Part shown: positions 13,741 to 62,216 of the stretch, one piece after another
Layout: the number at the start of each line of letters is the position of its first letter
How positions within the stretch are numbered: position 1 is the first letter of the stretch
Position numbers and translations under genes: made by a program
Notes under the pieces: model-generated
The model's input: only the letters and a program-made list of their open reading frames with translations
Told to the model about the DNA's origin: nothing
The model's database searches: none
Source of the DNA: a virus
Lineage: Duplodnaviria; Caudoviricetes
Length of the DNA: 64,000 nucleotides
IMG/VR virus record: IMGVR_UViG_3300010938_000036
Location: 821-64,820 of that record
Direction: 5' to 3' (one strand)

Positions 13741-14339
13741 TGTATTTTGCTTTAAAAAAATATATTTTAGAGCAATTTGTGCATTACACAGATGCATTGT
13801 GTAAGGCTGTTAAGGATGGTAGAATACAACCCAAGGATATGGAAGGGAATATAATGAAAATTCCCTCAGAAGTAAAGGTTTATACTATTGATGCTTGGAC
13901 ACCACGAGTTTATCCTGCTATAACTTTGGATGTAGATTCAATTCGTATGGAATTATCCGGTATAGATAGAGGATTTGCGATGGAACAACGATCAGAAAAT
14001 AATCCTGCGGAAAAGGTTTTTGTTTATCTGGCTACCGTTGGACTTGCATTGGCTTGTTTTGGTAGAACATTAGAAGAAAGAGATATTTTATCTGATTTAA
14101 TGTTATTTTTTTATACAAGAAAGGATGTCTATGATTTTTTATTGTCCAGAAGGATAAGAATTTCTACACCTGCTAATATTAGAACTTATGGAGAGGAAAC
14201 ACCGCCTGGACAGGATTTTAAAATTTATTATGCAGGATTATCATTAGAATTAAATACAGAATGTATTATACAGGAAATTAGTAATGTTCCGACCATTGGA
14301 GATGTAATTGCTGAAGTAGAGGATCCAGTTAAAATTTAA
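13740..14339 (+). CDS. Probable tail completion/terminator protein
   Basis: YPAITL and RTLEERDILSD motifs; immediately upstream of the sheath gene. Confidence 0.5.
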   Translation: MYFALKKYILEQFVHYTDALCKAVKDGRIQPKDMEGNIMKIPSEVKVYTIDAWTPRVYPAITLDVDSIRMELSGIDRGFAMEQRSENNPAEKVFVYLATVGLALACFGRTLEERDILSDLMLFFYTRKDVYDFLLSRRIRISTPANIRTYGEETPPGQDFKIYYAGLSLELNTECIIQEISNVPTIGDVIAEVEDPVKI

Positions 14340-14340
14340 T

Positions 14341-14369
14341 TTGACTTTTAAAATTTTTTTTATTATAAT
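14341..14369 (+). promoter_or_regulatory. sigma70-type promoter upstream of the tail operon
   Basis: TTGACT-N17-TATAAT. Confidence 0.7.
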
Positions 14370-14372
14370 GTT

Positions 14373-14578
14373 AATAGGAGGTTGGAAACAGTTGAGTAAT
14401 TTATTGATAAATGTAGAGATTTCATGTAAGGTAATGGTAGGACTGAGCAGACCGAAAGGATCTCAGTCTAAGAGATTTGTGCCTGGCCGAGGCCATACTG
14501 GTAGAGATACCAGCGATGTTCTCGTTAAGGCGAGGAATTTAGTTGTGGACACTTTTGTCTACAACTAGAAAGGCAGGT
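14373..14578 (+). repeat. Dispersed 206-bp element, copy 1 (RBS + internal promoter + structured RNA)
   Basis: Ungapped match to 58271-58476 with 10 mismatches. Confidence 0.95.
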
Positions 14579-14579
14579 C
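14439..14579 (+). ncRNA. Putative structured RNA (~140 nt), copy 1, family not recognised
   Basis: Starts 7 nt after TTGATA-N17-TAAGGT (14404-14432); stems 14440-47/14462-69, 14480-84/14571-75, 14498-503/14508-13, 14519-25/14530-36, 14540-51/14556-67. Confidence 0.7.
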
Positions 14580-14584
14580 ATTAA

Positions 14585-16342
14585 ATGGCAAATAGATTAC
14601 CAGGTGTGGTTGTAAGAATAGTTCCTGAGATAGGGCAGGTAACAATACCTTTATTTCAAAGGTATGTTTGTATAATAGGTCAGGGAGAACATAGATTATT
14701 GCAATCTAATGAAGAGGTAGTGCGTAGTTCTGTAAACAATTATGATATTTTTTCTAAAAGTTTTGTAGAATTGATAAGAGTTGGATTGGTTCCAGACGCT
14801 TCTGATTTTGTTCAAGGGACACATTTTAATATTTATACGCAGGGCGGACAGAATGTAGGTATTCAATGGAATCCATTAGTTCCTGCTTCTACTAATCAAT
14901 CTTGGTCAATTGCAGAACCTTTTGATTTTACAACAAATAATAAATTAAAAATTAATATAGATGGATTAGGGGATGTTATTATAGATTTATCATCATTGGG
15001 AAATTCTGCTACTGCTGCGCAGGTTGCAAATGTAATTAATACAGCATTGAGTAATGCTTACGGAACAGCATATAATTCTGTAGCACAGTTATTCCCTTCA
15101 CCTACGAATGATAAGGTTCAACTTGTTTCTCCTACAAGTGGAGAAAATTCAAAAATTGTTTTTTATGATATTGCTAATAATGCTTTTGTGGAAATTTGGG
15201 GAAATGGACCTGCACCTAACACCTGGCCCAACGGTATATTAGTATTAACAGGAACAGGTAAACAACCTGCTGCTGGTCAAACTTATTATGTGACTTATCG
15301 TTATAAGGCACCAGATTCAACTTATGAACCTACATTGTATTTTGATTTAAAACCTATTTATAATGAACATGGAAGTAGATTTCTTGCTAATCCATCTAAC
15401 CCAACTCAGATTAATGAAATTGTTTTGATGGCAGAAATGGCATTTCAGGATTTGCCTGAGAGAATACCTGGAATTGTAGTTGCTCAATTGGATTTAAGAA
15501 ATGCAGTTAATCCTTATGAACCTACACCATTGGAATTGCGAGATGCTTATATTGCAATGTTGGAGAAGTTGGAAAGGGTAACAGAAGGGAAATTATATTT
15601 AGTTTTAAATACGACTGATAGCCAAGTTTTGGATGAATATTTTAATCATGTAAGGACGATGAGTCAACCAGAAATTAAGGCAGAAAGGATGTTATGTATA
15701 ACGATGCCTCCTGGTAGTTCAATTAATGATTATATAAGTTCAACTGGAGCGCCTCATTATAAATCAGAAAGGGTAATGTTATTTTATCCATCTATGATTT
15801 ATGTAGACAGTGTGGGGCAGGATTTACCAAATTATTATGCGCCTTTGATTTATGCTGCAAGGAAAACTGCGGTTCCTATTGCGACACCTATTAATGTAGA
15901 ACCGTTACCTGGTATTACATTAAAGACAGCACCGACTTATAATGAAAAGAAGATTCTATTGGCGAATGGTGTTGCGGTAGTGGATATTGTTGAAGGGCAG
16001 ACGGTGATTTTACATGGTATAACAACAAGAACAGATTTTGTAATTTATGAGGAAGAAAATGTGGTTGATATTGCTGACTATGTTAAATTTATATGGCGTA
16101 AAAGAATGTTTGAATTATTTAAAAATGCTCCTATAGATGCGCCGACATTAAGGTCAATGGTTACAACTTCTATTGCATTGCTTGATTCTTTGATTAGAGA
16201 TAGGATAATAGCGGATTACAAGAATATTCAAGCGGTTCAGGATAATGTTGAGCCGAGAATGGTAAGAATGCGTGGTAAGGTAAAACCTATGTTTCATGTA
16301 TTGTATATGGACATAGAATTTACATTTTCAACAACCTTATAA
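14585..16342 (+). CDS. Contractile tail sheath protein
   Basis: N-terminal RLPGVVVR; C-terminal LLANGVAVV...GITT...EENVVDIADYV...IIADYKNI...KPMFHVLYMDIEF. Confidence 0.85.
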   Translation: MANRLPGVVVRIVPEIGQVTIPLFQRYVCIIGQGEHRLLQSNEEVVRSSVNNYDIFSKSFVELIRVGLVPDASDFVQGTHFNIYTQGGQNVGIQWNPLVPASTNQSWSIAEPFDFTTNNKLKINIDGLGDVIIDLSSLGNSATAAQVANVINTALSNAYGTAYNSVAQLFPSPTNDKVQLVSPTSGENSKIVFYDIANNAFVEIWGNGPAPNTWPNGILVLTGTGKQPAAGQTYYVTYRYKAPDSTYEPTLYFDLKPIYNEHGSRFLANPSNPTQINEIVLMAEMAFQDLPERIPGIVVAQLDLRNAVNPYEPTPLELRDAYIAMLEKLERVTEGKLYLVLNTTDSQVLDEYFNHVRTMSQPEIKAERMLCITMPPGSSINDYISSTGAPHYKSERVMLFYPSMIYVDSVGQDLPNYYAPLIYAARKTAVPIATPINVEPLPGITLKTAPTYNEKKILLANGVAVVDIVEGQTVILHGITTRTDFVIYEEENVVDIADYVKFIWRKRMFELFKNAPIDAPTLRSMVTTSIALLDSLIRDRIIADYKNIQAVQDNVEPRMVRMRGKVKPMFHVLYMDIEFTFSTTL

Positions 16343-16795: not shown

Positions 16796-16862
16796 TTTAA
16801 ATTTCAGGGTTTTCTAACCCGCGATACATCTTATTTAAATCTTAAAAATTAGGAGATTTTAA

Positions 16863-40894: not shown

Positions 40895-41095
40895 ATGAGG
40901 ATTGAATTAGATTTAATACCTTTTGAAGAAGCAGCAAGGATGATACCTTGTCATAAGACTTTATTATATTATTATTTAAAGAGGGATAAAATTCCTGTTT
41001 ATGTAATAGCCAATAGATATTTTATAGATAACGAAACATTAGAAGAAATTAGGAAAAATTTGAAGGAGAAAAAATGGACTTACAAGAAGAATTAG
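40895..41095 (+). CDS. Excisionase-like (HTH_17) DNA-binding protein
   Basis: LIPFEEAARMIPCHKTLLYYYLKRDKIP...RYFID. Confidence 0.7.
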   Translation: MRIELDLIPFEEAARMIPCHKTLLYYYLKRDKIPVYVIANRYFIDNETLEEIRKNLKEKKWTYKKN

Positions 41096-42051
41096 TAAAT
41101 TTTTGTCAAAATAAGAGTAGTTTTCAGTTTGTTTCAAATTTAATTCAGGAAGAGGTGGACGATTTACAGCAGGATTTTTTCCTTTATTGTTTCAGGCGTT
41201 TAAAGGATTTTGATAGTAGCAAGGGTTCTTTAAAAAATTTTTTCAGGGTTTTATTACAACATTTTTTATCTGAAAGGGTAAGGGTATATAATGAACATAA
41301 AAGGAAATTTGTAAATTATGAATTAATGGAGGTTTTAAGAAAAGAAGGAACCAGAGATTCTGAATTAGAGATTTTAGAACATGAAATAATAAATGTTAGA
41401 AATTTGAAGAAGGAGGTTAAAATGAAGCAAGATTTAAGAGAATTATTTTTTGATTTGATTGTAAATTTGTGGAATGAGGAGGAAAAGCGTGCTATTAAGG
41501 AGTATGTTAAAAAGGATGTTTTTACAACTGATGATATTTATCCTTGTTTTGGATTTTTTTATTGGAAGGATAAGGAGTGTGAGAAATGTATTTTAAAAAG
41601 GCTATGCAGGGAAGCAATAAAGCAAGTTTGGATACCGTATATTTTTGATTTTATAAGGACTTTAACACCAGAGGAGAAACAAGAATTTGTTTTAACAATT
41701 GTTCAGATTTTTGAACCTTTAATTCAAATTAGGAATGTAGAGAAGAAGGTCGGTTCAACTGTTTCTGGTTTATCTGCAATTCAGGATAAATATAAACTTG
41801 AGACTTATGGATTTAAGATTAATAGCAGAATGGGACGGTTAGTTTATTATTTATTAGAGAATGATGGTGATATAGATAAAGCGGTAGAACAAACTGCAAA
41901 TGAATTTCATGAAGATCCCAAAAGTATATCCAGGTATTTCAGAACGCAGGGATTTTATTTTTTAAGGAAGCGTGGGTTTAAAATAGAGAAACTTGATAAT
42001 AAAAGGATTAAATTGATTTTCCCTGAGGGGACTGTAAATGCAAATTCTTAG
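41074..42051 (+). CDS. Sigma-70 region-2-like protein with Cys-rich middle and HTH-like C-terminus
   Basis: DDLQQDFFLYCFRRLKDFDSSKGSLKNFF resembles ECF sigma region 2; CFG..ECEKCILKRLC. Confidence 0.55.
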   Translation: MDLQEELVNFCQNKSSFQFVSNLIQEEVDDLQQDFFLYCFRRLKDFDSSKGSLKNFFRVLLQHFLSERVRVYNEHKRKFVNYELMEVLRKEGTRDSELEILEHEIINVRNLKKEVKMKQDLRELFFDLIVNLWNEEEKRAIKEYVKKDVFTTDDIYPCFGFFYWKDKECEKCILKRLCREAIKQVWIPYIFDFIRTLTPEEKQEFVLTIVQIFEPLIQIRNVEKKVGSTVSGLSAIQDKYKLETYGFKINSRMGRLVYYLLENDGDIDKAVEQTANEFHEDPKSISRYFRTQGFYFLRKRGFKIEKLDNKRIKLIFPEGTVNANS

Positions 42052-47979: not shown

Positions 47980-47985
47980 TTTTTG

Positions 47986-48014
47986 TTGACTTTTATTTTT
48001 TAAAACAATAAAAT
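47986..48014 (+). promoter_or_regulatory. sigma70-type promoter
   Basis: TTGACT-N17-TAAAAT; ATG at 48022. Confidence 0.65.
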
Positions 48015-48021
48015 AAAATTA

Positions 48022-48273: not shown

Positions 48274-48298
48274 TTTAAATTCTATATTGTGTTATAAT
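48270..48298 (+). promoter_or_regulatory. sigma70-type promoter
   Basis: TTGATT-N17-TATAAT with TG extension; ATG at 48306. Confidence 0.7.
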
Positions 48299-48305
48299 AA
48301 TTATA

Positions 48306-56445: not shown

Positions 56446-58275
56446 ATGAGTGATGAAATAAAAACTAATAATGAGAAATTGCCTACAGTGGTGCCTTTTG
56501 GGGTTAAGGCACGGGGAGGATTTTTTAGTACTGCTGAATTTAAGGTAAGAGCGCAACCTTTTCTTGGATTGGGTGGTCCTATTTCTGCACCGCAGGGTGG
56601 ACTTGGAACTGTTATAACCACAGCACCTATTTTTTATGATATTCGTTATTTTACTCCTGATAAATTTTATTTCCCAAGACAAGAATTAGAACAAAATGAT
56701 ATATGGCGTTTAATTTATAAAAGGGACCCTATTGTTGGTGCAGCAATTGATTTGTATGCTGAATTTGCCTGGTCTAATTTTGATTTGGTAGGAATAGATG
56801 ATACTGCTGTTCGTTCTGTTTATGAAAATACAGTCGCAAATTTAAATTTGTTATCAATTTTGCCAGATATGACTAAAGAATTTTTAATCATTGGTAAGGT
56901 TATACCACATTTAATTTTTTCAGAAAAGGATGGGATTTGGAAACATGTTTTTATTCATGATCCTGACTATATTAAAATGACGGTGCTACCTTTTGCTAAT
57001 GAGGAACCAATTTTGGATTTAAAGGTGCCACCTGAATTAAGACAATTGGTAATTTCTCCTGATCCAAGAATACAAAAAATTGTAGCAAAATTGCCAGAGA
57101 GTATGGTGACTGCAATATTAAGTTCGCAATTTATTCCTTTGGATAATTTAAATGTAACTGTTATTCCTCGTCGGGCTTTTGCTTCTGATTGGAGAGGGAT
57201 TTCTATTTTAGAAAGACTTTACAGGATGTTAATGTTTGAGGATTTTTTGATGAATGCAGCATTGGCTGTTGCACAGCGTAATGCAGTTCCTTTAAGAATT
57301 TTTAAATTGGGTGATCATAAAGTTGATTGGTATCCTACAAAAGAAGATGAAAATGCGTTGAGTGAATTGTTGGCGATTGCAGAGGCGGACCCGATGTCCG
57401 CTTTGATAATGCATTCTGGAATAGAAGTAGAATATGTTGGTGTTTCTGACCGTTTTTGGAATGTTGCAAGAGAATGGGATTTTATTGAAAATATTAAATT
57501 GGTGGGATTAGGTGTAAGTAAATCTTTTCTTATGGGGGAGGCATCTTTTGCCAGTGCGGTAGCGGGTTTGCAAACTTTTGTTCAAAAGGTAGCAGGATTG
57601 CGTATGAAATTTGAAAATGAATGGATTGTTCCTAAGATTTTTAAAACAATTGCTAAAATACATAAATTTTATAAACGGACACCAGCAGAATTATCATATC
57701 GTATTCGTTTACAAAAGGAGGATTCAGATTTATTATACCCTGTTATTAAATGGCACAGGTCATTAGAGCCAACTCAAGATACATCTTTATTAAGCGTTTG
57801 GCGAGAATTACATGATAAAGGTATAATTTCAGATAGAACTTATGCTGCTGGTGCTGGTCTTAATCTGGATGTAGAAAGACAAAATAAATTAGAAGAAGAA
57901 CAATATAAAAAGAAGATAGAAACAATGGTAACAAAAATTCAATCTCAGATGGGGAATGAAACTGGATATCATGTTCCTTCTAAATATATACATGCATCTT
58001 GTTTTGATAAGCAAGGATTTTTTAAAGGTGTTCATTATTCTGAATTAGAACCAGTAATAGCATTTATTAAAGGGCATCAAGTAGATGAATTTAAAGGAAT
58101 AGATAATTCTTTGTCTTCAATATATCATTATTTGCGGGAGAAGAATTGGGATGATAAAAAATTAGATGCATTGACAGAATTATTAAAAATTGAGAAAATA
58201 TTAGTAACTCCTGATAAAATTTATGAAGAAATAGAGAAAGAGACATTACAAAAAGATTTTTTATCAGGGAAATAG
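56446..58275 (+). CDS. Portal protein
   Basis: DPIVGAAIDLYAEF, WRGISILER, PLRIFKLGD, LGVSKSFLMGEASFA; 609 aa, near terL. Confidence 0.8.
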   Translation: MSDEIKTNNEKLPTVVPFGVKARGGFFSTAEFKVRAQPFLGLGGPISAPQGGLGTVITTAPIFYDIRYFTPDKFYFPRQELEQNDIWRLIYKRDPIVGAAIDLYAEFAWSNFDLVGIDDTAVRSVYENTVANLNLLSILPDMTKEFLIIGKVIPHLIFSEKDGIWKHVFIHDPDYIKMTVLPFANEEPILDLKVPPELRQLVISPDPRIQKIVAKLPESMVTAILSSQFIPLDNLNVTVIPRRAFASDWRGISILERLYRMLMFEDFLMNAALAVAQRNAVPLRIFKLGDHKVDWYPTKEDENALSELLAIAEADPMSALIMHSGIEVEYVGVSDRFWNVAREWDFIENIKLVGLGVSKSFLMGEASFASAVAGLQTFVQKVAGLRMKFENEWIVPKIFKTIAKIHKFYKRTPAELSYRIRLQKEDSDLLYPVIKWHRSLEPTQDTSLLSVWRELHDKGIISDRTYAAGAGLNLDVERQNKLEEEQYKKKIETMVTKIQSQMGNETGYHVPSKYIHASCFDKQGFFKGVHYSELEPVIAFIKGHQVDEFKGIDNSLSSIYHYLREKNWDDKKLDALTELLKIEKILVTPDKIYEEIEKETLQKDFLSGK

Positions 58276-58476
58276 GAGGAAGGAAACAGTTGAGTAATTT
58301 ATTGACAAATATAGAGATTTCATGTAAGGTAATGGTAGGACTGAGCAGACCGAAAGGATCTCAGTCTAAGAGATTTGTGCCTCGCCGAGGCCATACTGGT
58401 AAAGATACCAGCGATGTTCTCGCTACGGCGAGGAATTTAGTTGTAGACACTTTTGTTTACAACTAGAAAGGCAGGT
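58271..58476 (+). repeat. Dispersed 206-bp element, copy 2
   Basis: Ungapped match to 14373-14578; includes the portal stop codon. Confidence 0.95.
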
Positions 58477-58477
58477 T
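58337..58477 (+). ncRNA. Putative structured RNA (~140 nt), copy 2
   Basis: Follows TTGACA-N17-TAAGGT (58302-58330); same stems as copy 1, with a cUACGg tetraloop. Confidence 0.7.
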
Positions 58478-58482
58478 CGAGA

Positions 58483-58716
58483 ATGTTTGAGATTATAAGT
58501 TTTGTGTTAAAAAAAGCGTTTTTGAAGATGAAGGGGCTTTTAGGTATTGATGAGGAGATTGAACTTCTTGCAAAGCAGATTGCAAAACTTTCTAAAAAGC
58601 CAGGATTTGACCAGGCAAGGATAAGGAATTTGATAGTAGTAGAATTGATGTATCCGCAGGCGGTTTTTGATGCGGCTTGGGAAAGATACCTGAAGGAATA
58701 TAAAGGAAAAGCATAG
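58483..58716 (+). CDS. Small hypothetical protein (LKKAFL motif)
   Basis: ATG 58483 at the same offset from the element as the sheath ATG in copy 1. Confidence 0.6.
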   Translation: MFEIISFVLKKAFLKMKGLLGIDEEIELLAKQIAKLSKKPGFDQARIRNLIVVELMYPQAVFDAAWERYLKEYKGKA

Positions 58717-60908: not shown

Positions 60909-62216
60909 ATGAATATACTTGGTAGTTTTTACAATCAATTATTGCATAAGTTTTATACGGGATTAAAAATATATGTAGATTATCAGGGTGGTTTATCTAC
61001 AAATGATGGATTAAGTCCTCAAGCGCCAGTTGATACAATAGCCACTGCTTTGAATAGAGCAAGTGGTTTTTATTCTCTTGCGAAAATGATTATTGTTATG
61101 AGGGGTAATCCAACTAAAAAGGGTGATATAATAGATGAACCGATTTCTATAAATATTCCGAACACAGTAATTGATTTTAATTTTATACCTATAAGATTAA
61201 CTGTTGATGGAATTGCAATATCTTTGCAGGAAGTTTTTACAGGTGTTGTCAATGCGAATATTGATTTGTTTGACCAACCAACTTATGGTGAAGGTATTGT
61301 AATGAATGGCGGATTGTTTAATTTTGTAGTAAATAGTTTGATTCAAAATTGTAAAGGTAGTGGAATCAGTGGTTATGGTAGTGGGAAAGGCGATTTAATA
61401 ATGGGCAATATTTTAATAAATAATGATGTTGGCTTGTGGATAAAGGAAAGAGGTGGAATTATTGTTCAGGGTAATTTGTTTGCCTTAAATTCAACTGCAA
61501 TTAAAAGTGATGGTGGTAATGGGCAGGCATTTGTTACAAGAAATATATTTCAGAGCAATATTGTAGATGTAGAAGAACAGCAATTTTATCAAGAATCACT
61601 GGATGGTGTAGGTAGTTTGAATAAATTGACTTCTCCATCCGCATCTTGGGCACCAGGACAATATACTGGATTTTTGTTGATTGACAGTGCAGGTAATGGG
61701 TATAAGATAACTGGTAATACTGCTACTGAATTGAATGTTGTAGGAGTTAATTTTGATGGTAGCGCAAAGGATGTAACTCCTGCGGATGGTCATTTCTGGA
61801 TTGTTCATTCTGAAAATGATGTGTTCTTTTATGAGAATTACTGGGATAAATTAAAGAACGCATCATTACAGATTTATGGTGATTCAAATGAAGATGGTAT
61901 ACTTGACAGATTAATTTCAATGCCTGAATTTGGTATTGGAATAGGGAAGAGTACAGTTATTGATAAGAAGCCATTGACAATGGAAGGTATTTTTTCAGAT
62001 GCTAATATTTTAGATACAAGTAATTTAATTTTAAATCAACTTTATTTCTTGAATAGCAGGGAATTTCAGAAAGCCTTAACGGATATGCCAAATCGTAATA
62101 TAAGGGCTGGTATGTTAGATTTTATAAGGTGGAAAATTTGGAATCAAAATTATAAACAAGAATTAGATTATGATAGTTCTTTGGATGTAATTAAAACTAA
62201 GATTATTAAAGAATAA
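60909..62216 (+). CDS. Right-handed beta-helix (pectin lyase-like) protein
   Basis: IYVD..GLSTNDGLSPQAPVDTIATAL leader; N-rich repeats NSLIQNCKGSGI, GNILINNDVGL, GNLFALNSTAI. Confidence 0.65.
   Translation: MNILGSFYNQLLHKFYTGLKIYVDYQGGLSTNDGLSPQAPVDTIATALNRASGFYSLAKMIIVMRGNPTKKGDIIDEPISINIPNTVIDFNFIPIRLTVDGIAISLQEVFTGVVNANIDLFDQPTYGEGIVMNGGLFNFVVNSLIQNCKGSGISGYGSGKGDLIMGNILINNDVGLWIKERGGIIVQGNLFALNSTAIKSDGGNGQAFVTRNIFQSNIVDVEEQQFYQESLDGVGSLNKLTSPSASWAPGQYTGFLLIDSAGNGYKITGNTATELNVVGVNFDGSAKDVTPADGHFWIVHSENDVFFYENYWDKLKNASLQIYGDSNEDGILDRLISMPEFGIGIGKSTVIDKKPLTMEGIFSDANILDTSNLILNQLYFLNSREFQKALTDMPNRNIRAGMLDFIRWKIWNQNYKQELDYDSSLDVIKTKIIKE

Follow-up and report, generated by a model that had tools for sequence, protein, structure and literature searches.

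A structured cassette of about 200 bp occurs twice, each time just ahead of a start codon, in the stretch of DNA analysed here (64,000 nt, hereafter the window), which belongs to the IMG/VR virus record IMGVR_UViG_3300010938_000036 of an uncultivated large phage (64.8 kb, estimated to be 37% complete). One copy precedes the tail sheath gene and the other follows the portal gene. The cassette is real, sharply delimited and lineage-restricted, and we tentatively read it as a copied, non-coding, cis-acting mRNA leader that would have been placed directly ahead of the start codon in at least two genes, a plausible reading that we hold with somewhat less than even confidence. The initial annotation of the window had proposed a conserved functional RNA at this place, a view that is partly supported by the evidence given below. 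That annotation did not mention the 58-codon reading frame with an AGGAGG within the repeat, the near-consensus promoter-like site beside copy 1, the lack of the element in relatives, or the provision of the downstream ribosome-binding site by the repeat's 3' end.

Positions 14373-14579 align with 58271-58477 without a gap and with 10 differences (197 of 207 positions identical), and a search of the genome against itself returned the pair at 95% identity over query positions 1-206; the two methods agree on the ungapped repeat of ~206 bp described initially. It is the largest direct repeat of the window (family D1). A covariance-model search of the window with filters switched off found no third full-length copy; its four other rows were weak, two of them lying on the minus strand of the palindrome of hairpin P5 (E 0.06-0.11) and two having E values above 3. 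Both copies are placed in the same manner, with the site 2 nt after an AGGAGG and the right boundary 6 nt before an ATG, and the TAG stop codon of the portal gene (58273-58275) falls within the first 5 bases of copy 2. They occupy the two longest intergenic gaps of the window (245 and 207 nt by the list of open reading frames (ORFs) and the printed gaps; the next longest is 116 nt). The conserved folded core spans about 140 nt (14440-14578) and has a GC content of 0.47 versus 0.317 for the window, in line with the balanced composition that had been noted before.

Hairpin P1 (GGACUGAG paired with CUCAGUCU) and hairpins P3-P5 are common to all fold predictions. P3 has the form CUGGUA-GAGA/AAGA-UACCAG, P4 the form UUCUCG(U/C)-UAAG/UACG-GCGAGGA, and P5 is a 14-bp stem, UAGUUGU(G/A)GACA-CUUU. 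The helix that closes the multibranch domain varies by prediction, being UGCCU/AGGCA in the minimum free energy (MFE) structure of copy 1 and GAUUUGU/GCAGGUC, accompanied by a local GCCU/AGGC hairpin, in the two-sequence consensus. The multibranch fold closed by UGCCU/AGGCA that had been drawn earlier therefore stands for its hairpins, and for its closing helix in the MFE structure of copy 1 but not in the consensus. Two mutually exclusive folds are open to the 5' strand GAUUUGUGCCU, which may form a local hairpin (GCCU/AGGC) or engage the ribosome-binding site (UGCCU/AGGCA, GAUUUGU/GCAGGUC), and the G-to-C difference at 14485 extends the local hairpin in copy 2.

Six differences between the copies fall in the core. 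Three are unpaired and three are one-sided changes that keep a pair (U-G to C-G, G-U to A-U and G-C to G-U), whereas none breaks a pair, which bears out the earlier observation that the differences respect the fold; the three stem changes preserve pairing on the plus strand only. When six random substitutions with the same number of transitions were simulated 20,000 times, zero broken pairs were reached in 2.0% of the cases, a figure that is optimistic because the structure was derived from the same two sequences that were tested. Among 400 simulated mutants, 3.5% fold as well as the real second copy. The folding energies of the two copies lie below those of their shuffles on the plus strand (z = -4.0 and -3.8) and also on the minus strand (z = -4.9), and energy alone thus cannot pick the strand. 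The plus strand is the more stable of the two (MFE -66.8 versus -50.7 kcal/mol) because about eight of its pairs are G-U, which become A-C mismatches on the other strand.

No RNA family of Rfam 15, whether riboswitch, ribozyme, intron, omega-RNA/HEARO or small RNA, matched anywhere in the window at the gathering score, in line with the initial annotation, which could assign the element to no known family. With E values up to 10 allowed, the region 14250-14700 gave two chance-level matches, both on the minus strand (E 2.4 and 4.2; 15 bits versus a required 82.3, and 8.9 versus 60). For P1, the hammerhead, hepatitis delta virus-like, group I intron and group II domain-5 folds were considered and dropped, as their key positions, compared by eye with consensus features, do not fit and Rfam is silent.

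The limits of the core become visible through an outside homolog. The folded domain is spanned by a 58-codon ORF (Table 1), and a search of 5.8 billion proteins returned the window's own two ORFs and a single other sequence, P0004 (62 residues, 74% identical); a profile search of 1.84 billion protein cluster representatives returned only the window's own cluster. The ORF of P0004 is carried by a third copy of the element, located on another metagenomic contig (85.7 kb). Between L18, the first codon inside P1, and N58, 40 of the 41 residues of P0004 agree with one or the other copy, as opposed to 2-3 of the 13 residues before. It has a different start codon, and its stop is replaced by Q, followed by KGR, which is AAAGGCAGG translated in that frame. 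As the match ends at P1 and at AAAGGCAGG, the conserved unit is the folded core rather than the ORF or the promoter-like stretch. P0004 shares G32 and R38 with copy 1, and A45 and T46 with copy 2. These shared states imply about two derived core changes on each window copy and an ancestor with GAAA, GAGA and cUACGg loops, which we take to belong to the stable GNRA and UNCG classes.

The element was absent from the equivalent sites of all recovered relatives, whose loci came from alignment-based searches (single-protein queries with the sheath and the portal gave nothing). Besides the window's own sheath there are four homologs (52-63% identity), and three of their loci were recovered; all three lack the element, and their leaders of ~80-110 nt include a Shine-Dalgarno sequence as well as a promoter-like site. 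Among 84 homologs of the portal protein, 26 IMG/VR loci were recovered (43-55% identity), and in none of the 26 was the element found: the next ORF either overlaps the portal gene or begins no more than 55 nt away, and an apparent 438-nt gap after the portal gene of one locus (L024) is occupied by a 158-codon ORF. A covariance model built from the two cores (R1) was run over 30 sources (320 kb) and returned only the two window copies, with nothing in the 29 loci of relatives, and it had no match in 25 whole related viral records. Blastn against 50,697 GenBank phage records and exact 19-20-mers from P1 in IMG/VR gave no match either, and the collection of homologs that the initial annotation had envisaged along these lines brought in no further copies. 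Back-translated peptide scans with P0004 or the three-sequence alignment found relatives in none of 14 viral, 86 metagenome and 21 genome contig stretches. Two 19-mer matches in genome contigs (Bradyrhizobium and Pirellulaceae) were dismissed as chance, model R1 scoring 6.3 bits over 24 nt in one of them and nothing in the other. The absence from equivalent sites in relatives indicates that the cassette is a lineage-restricted insertion, that is, a gain.

Table 1. Coordinates of the cassette copies, their parts and the outer promoter-like site (positions of the window).
Feature	Position	Strand	Basis
Copy 1, whole cassette	14373..14579	+	alignment, own-genome search, repeat scan
AGGAGG Shine-Dalgarno sequence, left edge of the repeat	14376..14381	+	anti-Shine-Dalgarno duplex -10.9 kcal/mol, as strong as or stronger than 85% of 74 window ORF starts
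58-codon ORF, TTG start, spans the folded domain and ends 16 nt before the sheath ATG	14392..14568	+	ORF list
Internal promoter-like TTGATA-N17-TAAGGT	14404..14432	+	motif search; -10 below the threshold of the consensus scan
Predicted hairpin P1, GGACUGAG...CUCAGUCU, inner CC-GAAA-GG; homology to P0004 begins here	14440..14469	+	fold predictions
Predicted multibranch domain, copy 1	14474..14579	+	RNAalifold: closing 14474-14480/14573-14579, P2 14481-14493, P3 14494-14518 (GAGA), P4 14519-14536 (UAAG), P5 14538-14569 (14 bp, CUUU loop)
GAAAGGCAGG ribosome-binding site from the 3' end of the repeat, 6 nt, sheath ATG at 14585	14570..14587	+	duplex -8.8 kcal/mol
Copy 2, whole cassette	58271..58477	+	alignment, own-genome search, repeat scan
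58-codon ORF of copy 2	58290..58466	+	ORF list
Internal promoter-like TTGACA-N17-TAAGGT, -35 a perfect consensus	58302..58330	+	motif search
Predicted folded core, copy 2	58338..58477	+	P1 58338-58367; closing 58372-58378/58471-58477; P2 58379-58391; P3 58392-58416 (AAGA); P4 58417-58434 (cUACGg); P5 58436-58467
GAAAGGCAGG ribosome-binding site, 6 nt, ATG 58483 of the 77-codon ORF	58468..58485	+	predicted probability of being unpaired 0.07-0.38
Outer sigma-70-type promoter-like site TTGACT-17-TATAAT, 5' of copy 1 and outside the repeat	14341..14369	+	11/12 consensus positions

The signals around the core suggest how it may be expressed. The cassette had been described as promoter-bearing, and the motif TTGA(T/C)A-N17-TAAGGT is indeed present in both copies; a start 7 nt after the -10 hexamer would fall at 14439, at the foot of the first hairpin, which begins at 14440, just as had been expected. 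A far better candidate is the outer site, which lies beyond the repeat and has a counterpart, TTGACA-17-TAAAAT, at the equivalent position in one relative (L003), directly 3' of the upstream stop codon. Promoter-like sites in the region number 13, which is not above the 10.3 (standard deviation 3.7) of shuffled sequences, and the outer site is proposed by its match to the consensus. It probably drives the sheath mRNA, of which the cassette would thereby be the 5' leader. No comparable outer promoter was found in the 2-kb region scanned around copy 2.

A T-rich terminator 3' of P5 was found in neither of the 2-kb regions around the two copies, the only terminator-like call being the weak internal P4 hairpin. 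As no terminator follows the fold, transcription would have to continue into the next gene, so that a leader extending into that gene is more likely than a free-standing small RNA, which is unlikely. The GAAAGGCAGG site at the 3' end of the repeat is above average for the phage, its duplex (-8.8 kcal/mol) equalling or exceeding those of 78% of 74 ORF starts. It is mostly paired by prediction in copy 1 (probability of being unpaired 0.24-0.36; 0.07-0.38 over both copies).

Several further observations concern promoters of this phage group. The motif TTGAYA-N16-17-TAAGAT occurs upstream of the sheath gene in two relatives (L004 3909-3937 and L005 3910-3938, where the leaders read TTGATA-17-TAAGAT) and once within the window ORF 60909-62216 (61681-61708); judging from these occurrences, it may represent a kind of promoter peculiar to this phage group. 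The ORF at 41074-42051 (325 residues), flanked by the genes for the primase and the DNA polymerase, matches Sigma70_r2 below threshold (17.3 and 15 bits versus a cut-off of 24). Its product may be a phage sigma-like factor, which could recognise an unusual -10 such as TAAGGT or TAAGAT. At 2801-2838, 47980-48021 and 48274-48305, promoter-like TATAAT/TAAAAT hexamers lie only ~7-10 nt before the next ATG, and at such distances several messages of the phage would be leaderless or nearly so.

From 5' to 3', the cassette carries an AGGAGG, a weak sigma-70-like promoter site, a domain of ~140 nt with five predicted hairpins whose fold is specific to the plus strand, and GAAAGGCAGG located 6 nt before the ATG. 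In the arrangement that we propose, it would serve the sheath mRNA as a 5' leader of ~210 nt, transcribed from the promoter at 14341-14369 and/or from its own weak one, and copy 2 would be an intercistronic leader between portal and the next gene. Because no terminator is present and its last bases are the ribosome-binding site of the next gene, the element would have to belong to the mRNA of that gene. Acting in cis, its compact hairpins close to the 5' end may protect or process the message. The closing helix may partly hide the ribosome-binding site of the downstream gene and might be opened by ribosomes that load at AGGAGG-N10-UUG and read the 58-codon frame, or by a factor; translational coupling through the frame would explain why it is open despite the drift of its amino acids. 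The leader module would have spread by recombination or duplication, without a transposase of its own.

Another direct repeat in the window (~134-307 and ~2353-2517; ~88-90% identity with small indels) flanks a 692-residue methyltransferase-like ORF (256-2334). It consists of a leader and the first ~20 codons (MDKVSRDTIEVLQG.TYK), common to ORF 256-2334 and ORF 2444-2800, and suggests that the methyltransferase-like gene was inserted with a duplication of the 5' region of its neighbour. With this second duplicated leader, leader duplication appears to be a habit of this genome.

A number of points weigh against a functional leader. The internal -10 hexamer TAAGGT is poor and fails the 4-of-6 rule of the consensus scan, and the promoter-like stretch is apparently not kept in P0004, where 2-3 of 13 residues match at the amino-acid level; the case for the promoter named initially is weakened accordingly. 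That the ribosome-binding site is occluded is a guess from thermodynamics, and the closing helix differs between predictions. The minus strand likewise beats its own shuffles, and in the two DNA sequences compared none of the 51 pairs shows a two-sided compensatory change, four show a one-sided change that keeps the pair, and none is broken. Each copy has weakened one 'ideal' loop or pair after their split, copy 1 going from UACG to UAAG and from C-G to U-G, and copy 2 from GAGA to AAGA; these changes are as compatible with weak constraint or slow decay as with function. Finally, the relatives express their sheath and post-portal genes without such a leader, which makes it dispensable for these genes in general. 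The fold kept on the plus strand supports the view taken at the outset, but the conservation asserted there is weakened by the availability of only three close sequences, by the lack of a two-sided change and by relatives that do without the element.

Known 5' mRNA stabilisers of Gram-positive bacteria comprise STAB-SD elements, polypurine sequences and 5' stem-loops, and they are short. The cassette resembles them in that a perfect AGGAGG lies a long way 5' of the gene, where the sheath transcript is predicted to begin or close to it, with stable hairpins after it, but nothing in the known stabilisers resembles a multibranch domain of 140 nt. References to such elements are found in PMC3997798.

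The closest described kind of element, by description, appears to be the promoter-early stem-loop (PeSL) cassette of T4-type phages. According to PMC2839356 and PMC4122927, PeSLs combine a sigma-70-like promoter, a stem-loop and a 3' Shine-Dalgarno sequence with a start codon, and are thought to spread and to shuffle genes via recombination between copies. Likewise, a repeated intergenic cassette of a large myovirus is seen here, with a promoter-like site, stem-loop structure and a 3' Shine-Dalgarno sequence plus the next start codon (GAAAGGCAGG-N6-ATG in both copies), and elsewhere in the window an inserted gene stands between the two copies of another duplicated leader. In contrast, PeSLs as described there are ~100 bp long with one G/C-rich terminator stem-loop, whereas the present cassette has ~200 bp and a five-helix domain of ~140 nt after a weak promoter (TTGAYA-N17-TAAGGT, whose -10 lies below the threshold of the consensus scan), with no terminating stem-loop in the 2-kb scans. 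PeSLs are also numerous, located in hyperplastic regions beside orphan genes, while the 64 kb analysed hold two copies, not many, and these stand beside core virion genes. We found no specific published description of an element like this one in the parts of the literature available, and it could be listed among the 8,495 candidates of the IMG/VR structured-RNA survey, which, according to PMC10690425, needed at least three IMG/VR regions and covariation.

The copied leader has to be weighed against a selfish, non-autonomous mobile element without a function for the phage, a possibility that we consider unlikely but by no means slight. Such an element would depend on an enzyme encoded elsewhere for its movement, by way of single-stranded DNA or of RNA, and would be tolerated only where it has landed between a Shine-Dalgarno sequence and a start codon, since it comes with an open frame and with its own substitute for the ribosome-binding site. 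Two copies at sites that are not homologous, with a third on another contig, the sharp ends of the core in the comparison with P0004, the empty equivalent sites in all relatives examined, the use of the same kind of insertion spot twice, and a star-like relationship of the three sequences all agree with it. The hairpins near the ends and the fold kept on one strand are features of the hairpin-dependent single-strand transposition of IS200/IS605-type elements. However, terminal inverted repeats are missing (the sole inverted pair in 14330-14600 is P5, at 14540-14567), and a clear target duplication is not seen, as the AGG present at both junctions of both copies is inseparable from the element or from the Shine-Dalgarno sequence. 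Neither TnpB (PF07282, PF01385) nor a Y1 transposase (PF01797), a reverse transcriptase (PF00078) or an HNH domain (PF01844) was found in the 64.8-kb record, which is about 37% of the genome, and a partner may lie in the remainder; the searches with PF01797, PF01385 and PF07282 gave no match at E values up to 1. Moreover, three copies are known in all, with none in the GenBank phages, in the IMG/VR, metagenome and genome scans or in the 25 related viral records. In comparison with miniature inverted-repeat transposable elements and IS200/IS605 derivatives, the former treated for viruses in PMC11602168, the cassette is likewise small, non-coding, intergenic, present at several sites and absent from relatives, with hairpins near its ends, but it differs in its termini, in the missing target duplication and partner enzyme, and in its low copy number.

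Template and variable repeats of a diversity-generating retroelement were also considered for the repeat pair and rejected, as the copies do not differ specifically at adenines and the 64.8-kb record gave no match to a reverse transcriptase.

A role of the RNA beyond that of a passive leader is rather unlikely. The element would then be an antiterminator or anti-pausing RNA that rides on RNA polymerase, a switch of the ribosome-binding site operated by a ligand or protein, or an RNA that cuts the polycistronic message by self-cleavage or processing. The late-gene regulator, ribozyme and packaging-type RNA brought up initially are at this stage conjectures. Among known systems, the nearest in function to a duplicated promoter-proximal RNA appear to be putL and putR of phage HK022, which, according to PMC9378689, are RNAs of ~70 nt with two stem-loops in the early operons of a lambdoid phage, where they bind the zinc-binding domain of the RNA polymerase beta' subunit and suppress termination. 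As in that phage, two similar structured copies are found in one genome, downstream of promoters or promoter-like sites, would act in cis if at all, and would need no dedicated gene. The multi-helix domain, the loops of stable classes and the pair-keeping substitutions, as well as the alternative pairings of GAUUUGUGCCU, with the local hairpin longer in copy 2 through the change at 14485, are consistent with an active RNA. Yet, compared by size and fold description, the element of ~140 nt with five helices that abuts start codons does not match put RNAs, and no strong intrinsic terminator to be overridden lies directly downstream in the two 2-kb regions scanned. Riboswitches, ribozymes, introns and antiterminators of Rfam gave no match even at E values up to 10, three close sequences are too few to recognise conserved junction nucleotides, and relatives do without the element.

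It is improbable, on the same reckoning, that the ~140-nt core (14440-14578) would be the first representative of a class of phage RNAs that has yet to be described, either a portable put-like or switch-like module that would control late genes on RNA polymerase or the ribosome, or an element mobilised as RNA or single-stranded DNA that would colonise the spacer between Shine-Dalgarno sequence and start codon with its own replacement ribosome-binding site.

A duplicated gene for a small protein of 58 residues (AGGAGG-N10-TTG), with an incidental RNA fold, is very unlikely. A strong Shine-Dalgarno sequence does stand at a workable distance from the TTG, and neither copy nor P0004 has the frame interrupted; P0004 entered the database solely by virtue of its open frame, which is thus not independent evidence. 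But the differences between the copies comprise 6 non-synonymous and 2 synonymous changes, with a ratio of non-synonymous to synonymous differences per site (pN/pS) of 0.91, and the codon-usage scores of the two ORFs (-3.3 and -1.3) are 3-4 standard deviations below that of real genes (14.0, standard deviation 4.4, in 290 in-frame windows). The GC content at third codon positions is 0.41, versus 0.23 in real genes. In addition to the differing start and stop of P0004 and the lack of relatives among the cluster representatives, the ORF belongs to no Pfam or PHROG family, and its AlphaFold model has a mean predicted local distance difference test (pLDDT) of 59.5 and a predicted template modelling score (pTM) of 0.24. 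The 58-codon ORF is therefore probably not a conserved protein, but its translation as a coupling or leader ORF is conceivable.

An assembly artefact or chance similarity, which the origin of the window as a metagenome-assembled fragment might suggest, has a negligible probability, since the 10 differences and distinct flanks exclude an artefact, both ORFs are recorded on a 119-kb contig that is longer than the 64.8-kb record, and 197 of 207 identical positions are impossible by chance in a 64-kb window.

All genes of the window are encoded on the plus strand. Copy 1 lies between a 199-residue ORF without known function and the tail sheath gene (14585-16342; phrog_2839, E 1.4e-12), and copy 2 between the portal gene (56446-58275; phrog_16240, E 5e-92) and a 77-codon ORF without assigned function, which agrees with the sheath and portal neighbours named initially. 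Further genes of the window encode a head protease, the major head protein, a tape measure protein, replication proteins and the large terminase subunit. In GenBank, the closest phages are jumbo phages that are only distantly similar, their portals being at most 36% identical. In the gap 3' of the tube-like gene (phrog_985), at 16796-16862, the hairpin GGGTTTTCTAACCC has no clear T tract and may be a terminator or a processing site. Among the portal homologs, 8 of the 84 (P0065, P0067, P0069, P0070, P0074, P0077, P0081 and P0087) are annotated in advance with domains of inteins and homing endonucleases (PF14890, PF14528, PF05203) and thus represent intein-bearing portal genes of this phage group. 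Seven of the eight span 984-1055 residues and P0077 711; the window's own portal has no such domain.

At present, the cassette is a well-delimited candidate with three close instances known rather than an established discovery. If its core were an antiterminator, a switch or a mobile RNA, it would represent a new RNA class. If the portable leader is the right reading, large phages outside the T4 group would also rewire the expression of core virion genes by copying ready-made modules, and the cassette would offer a small, naturally occurring part with which messages could be stabilised or gated.

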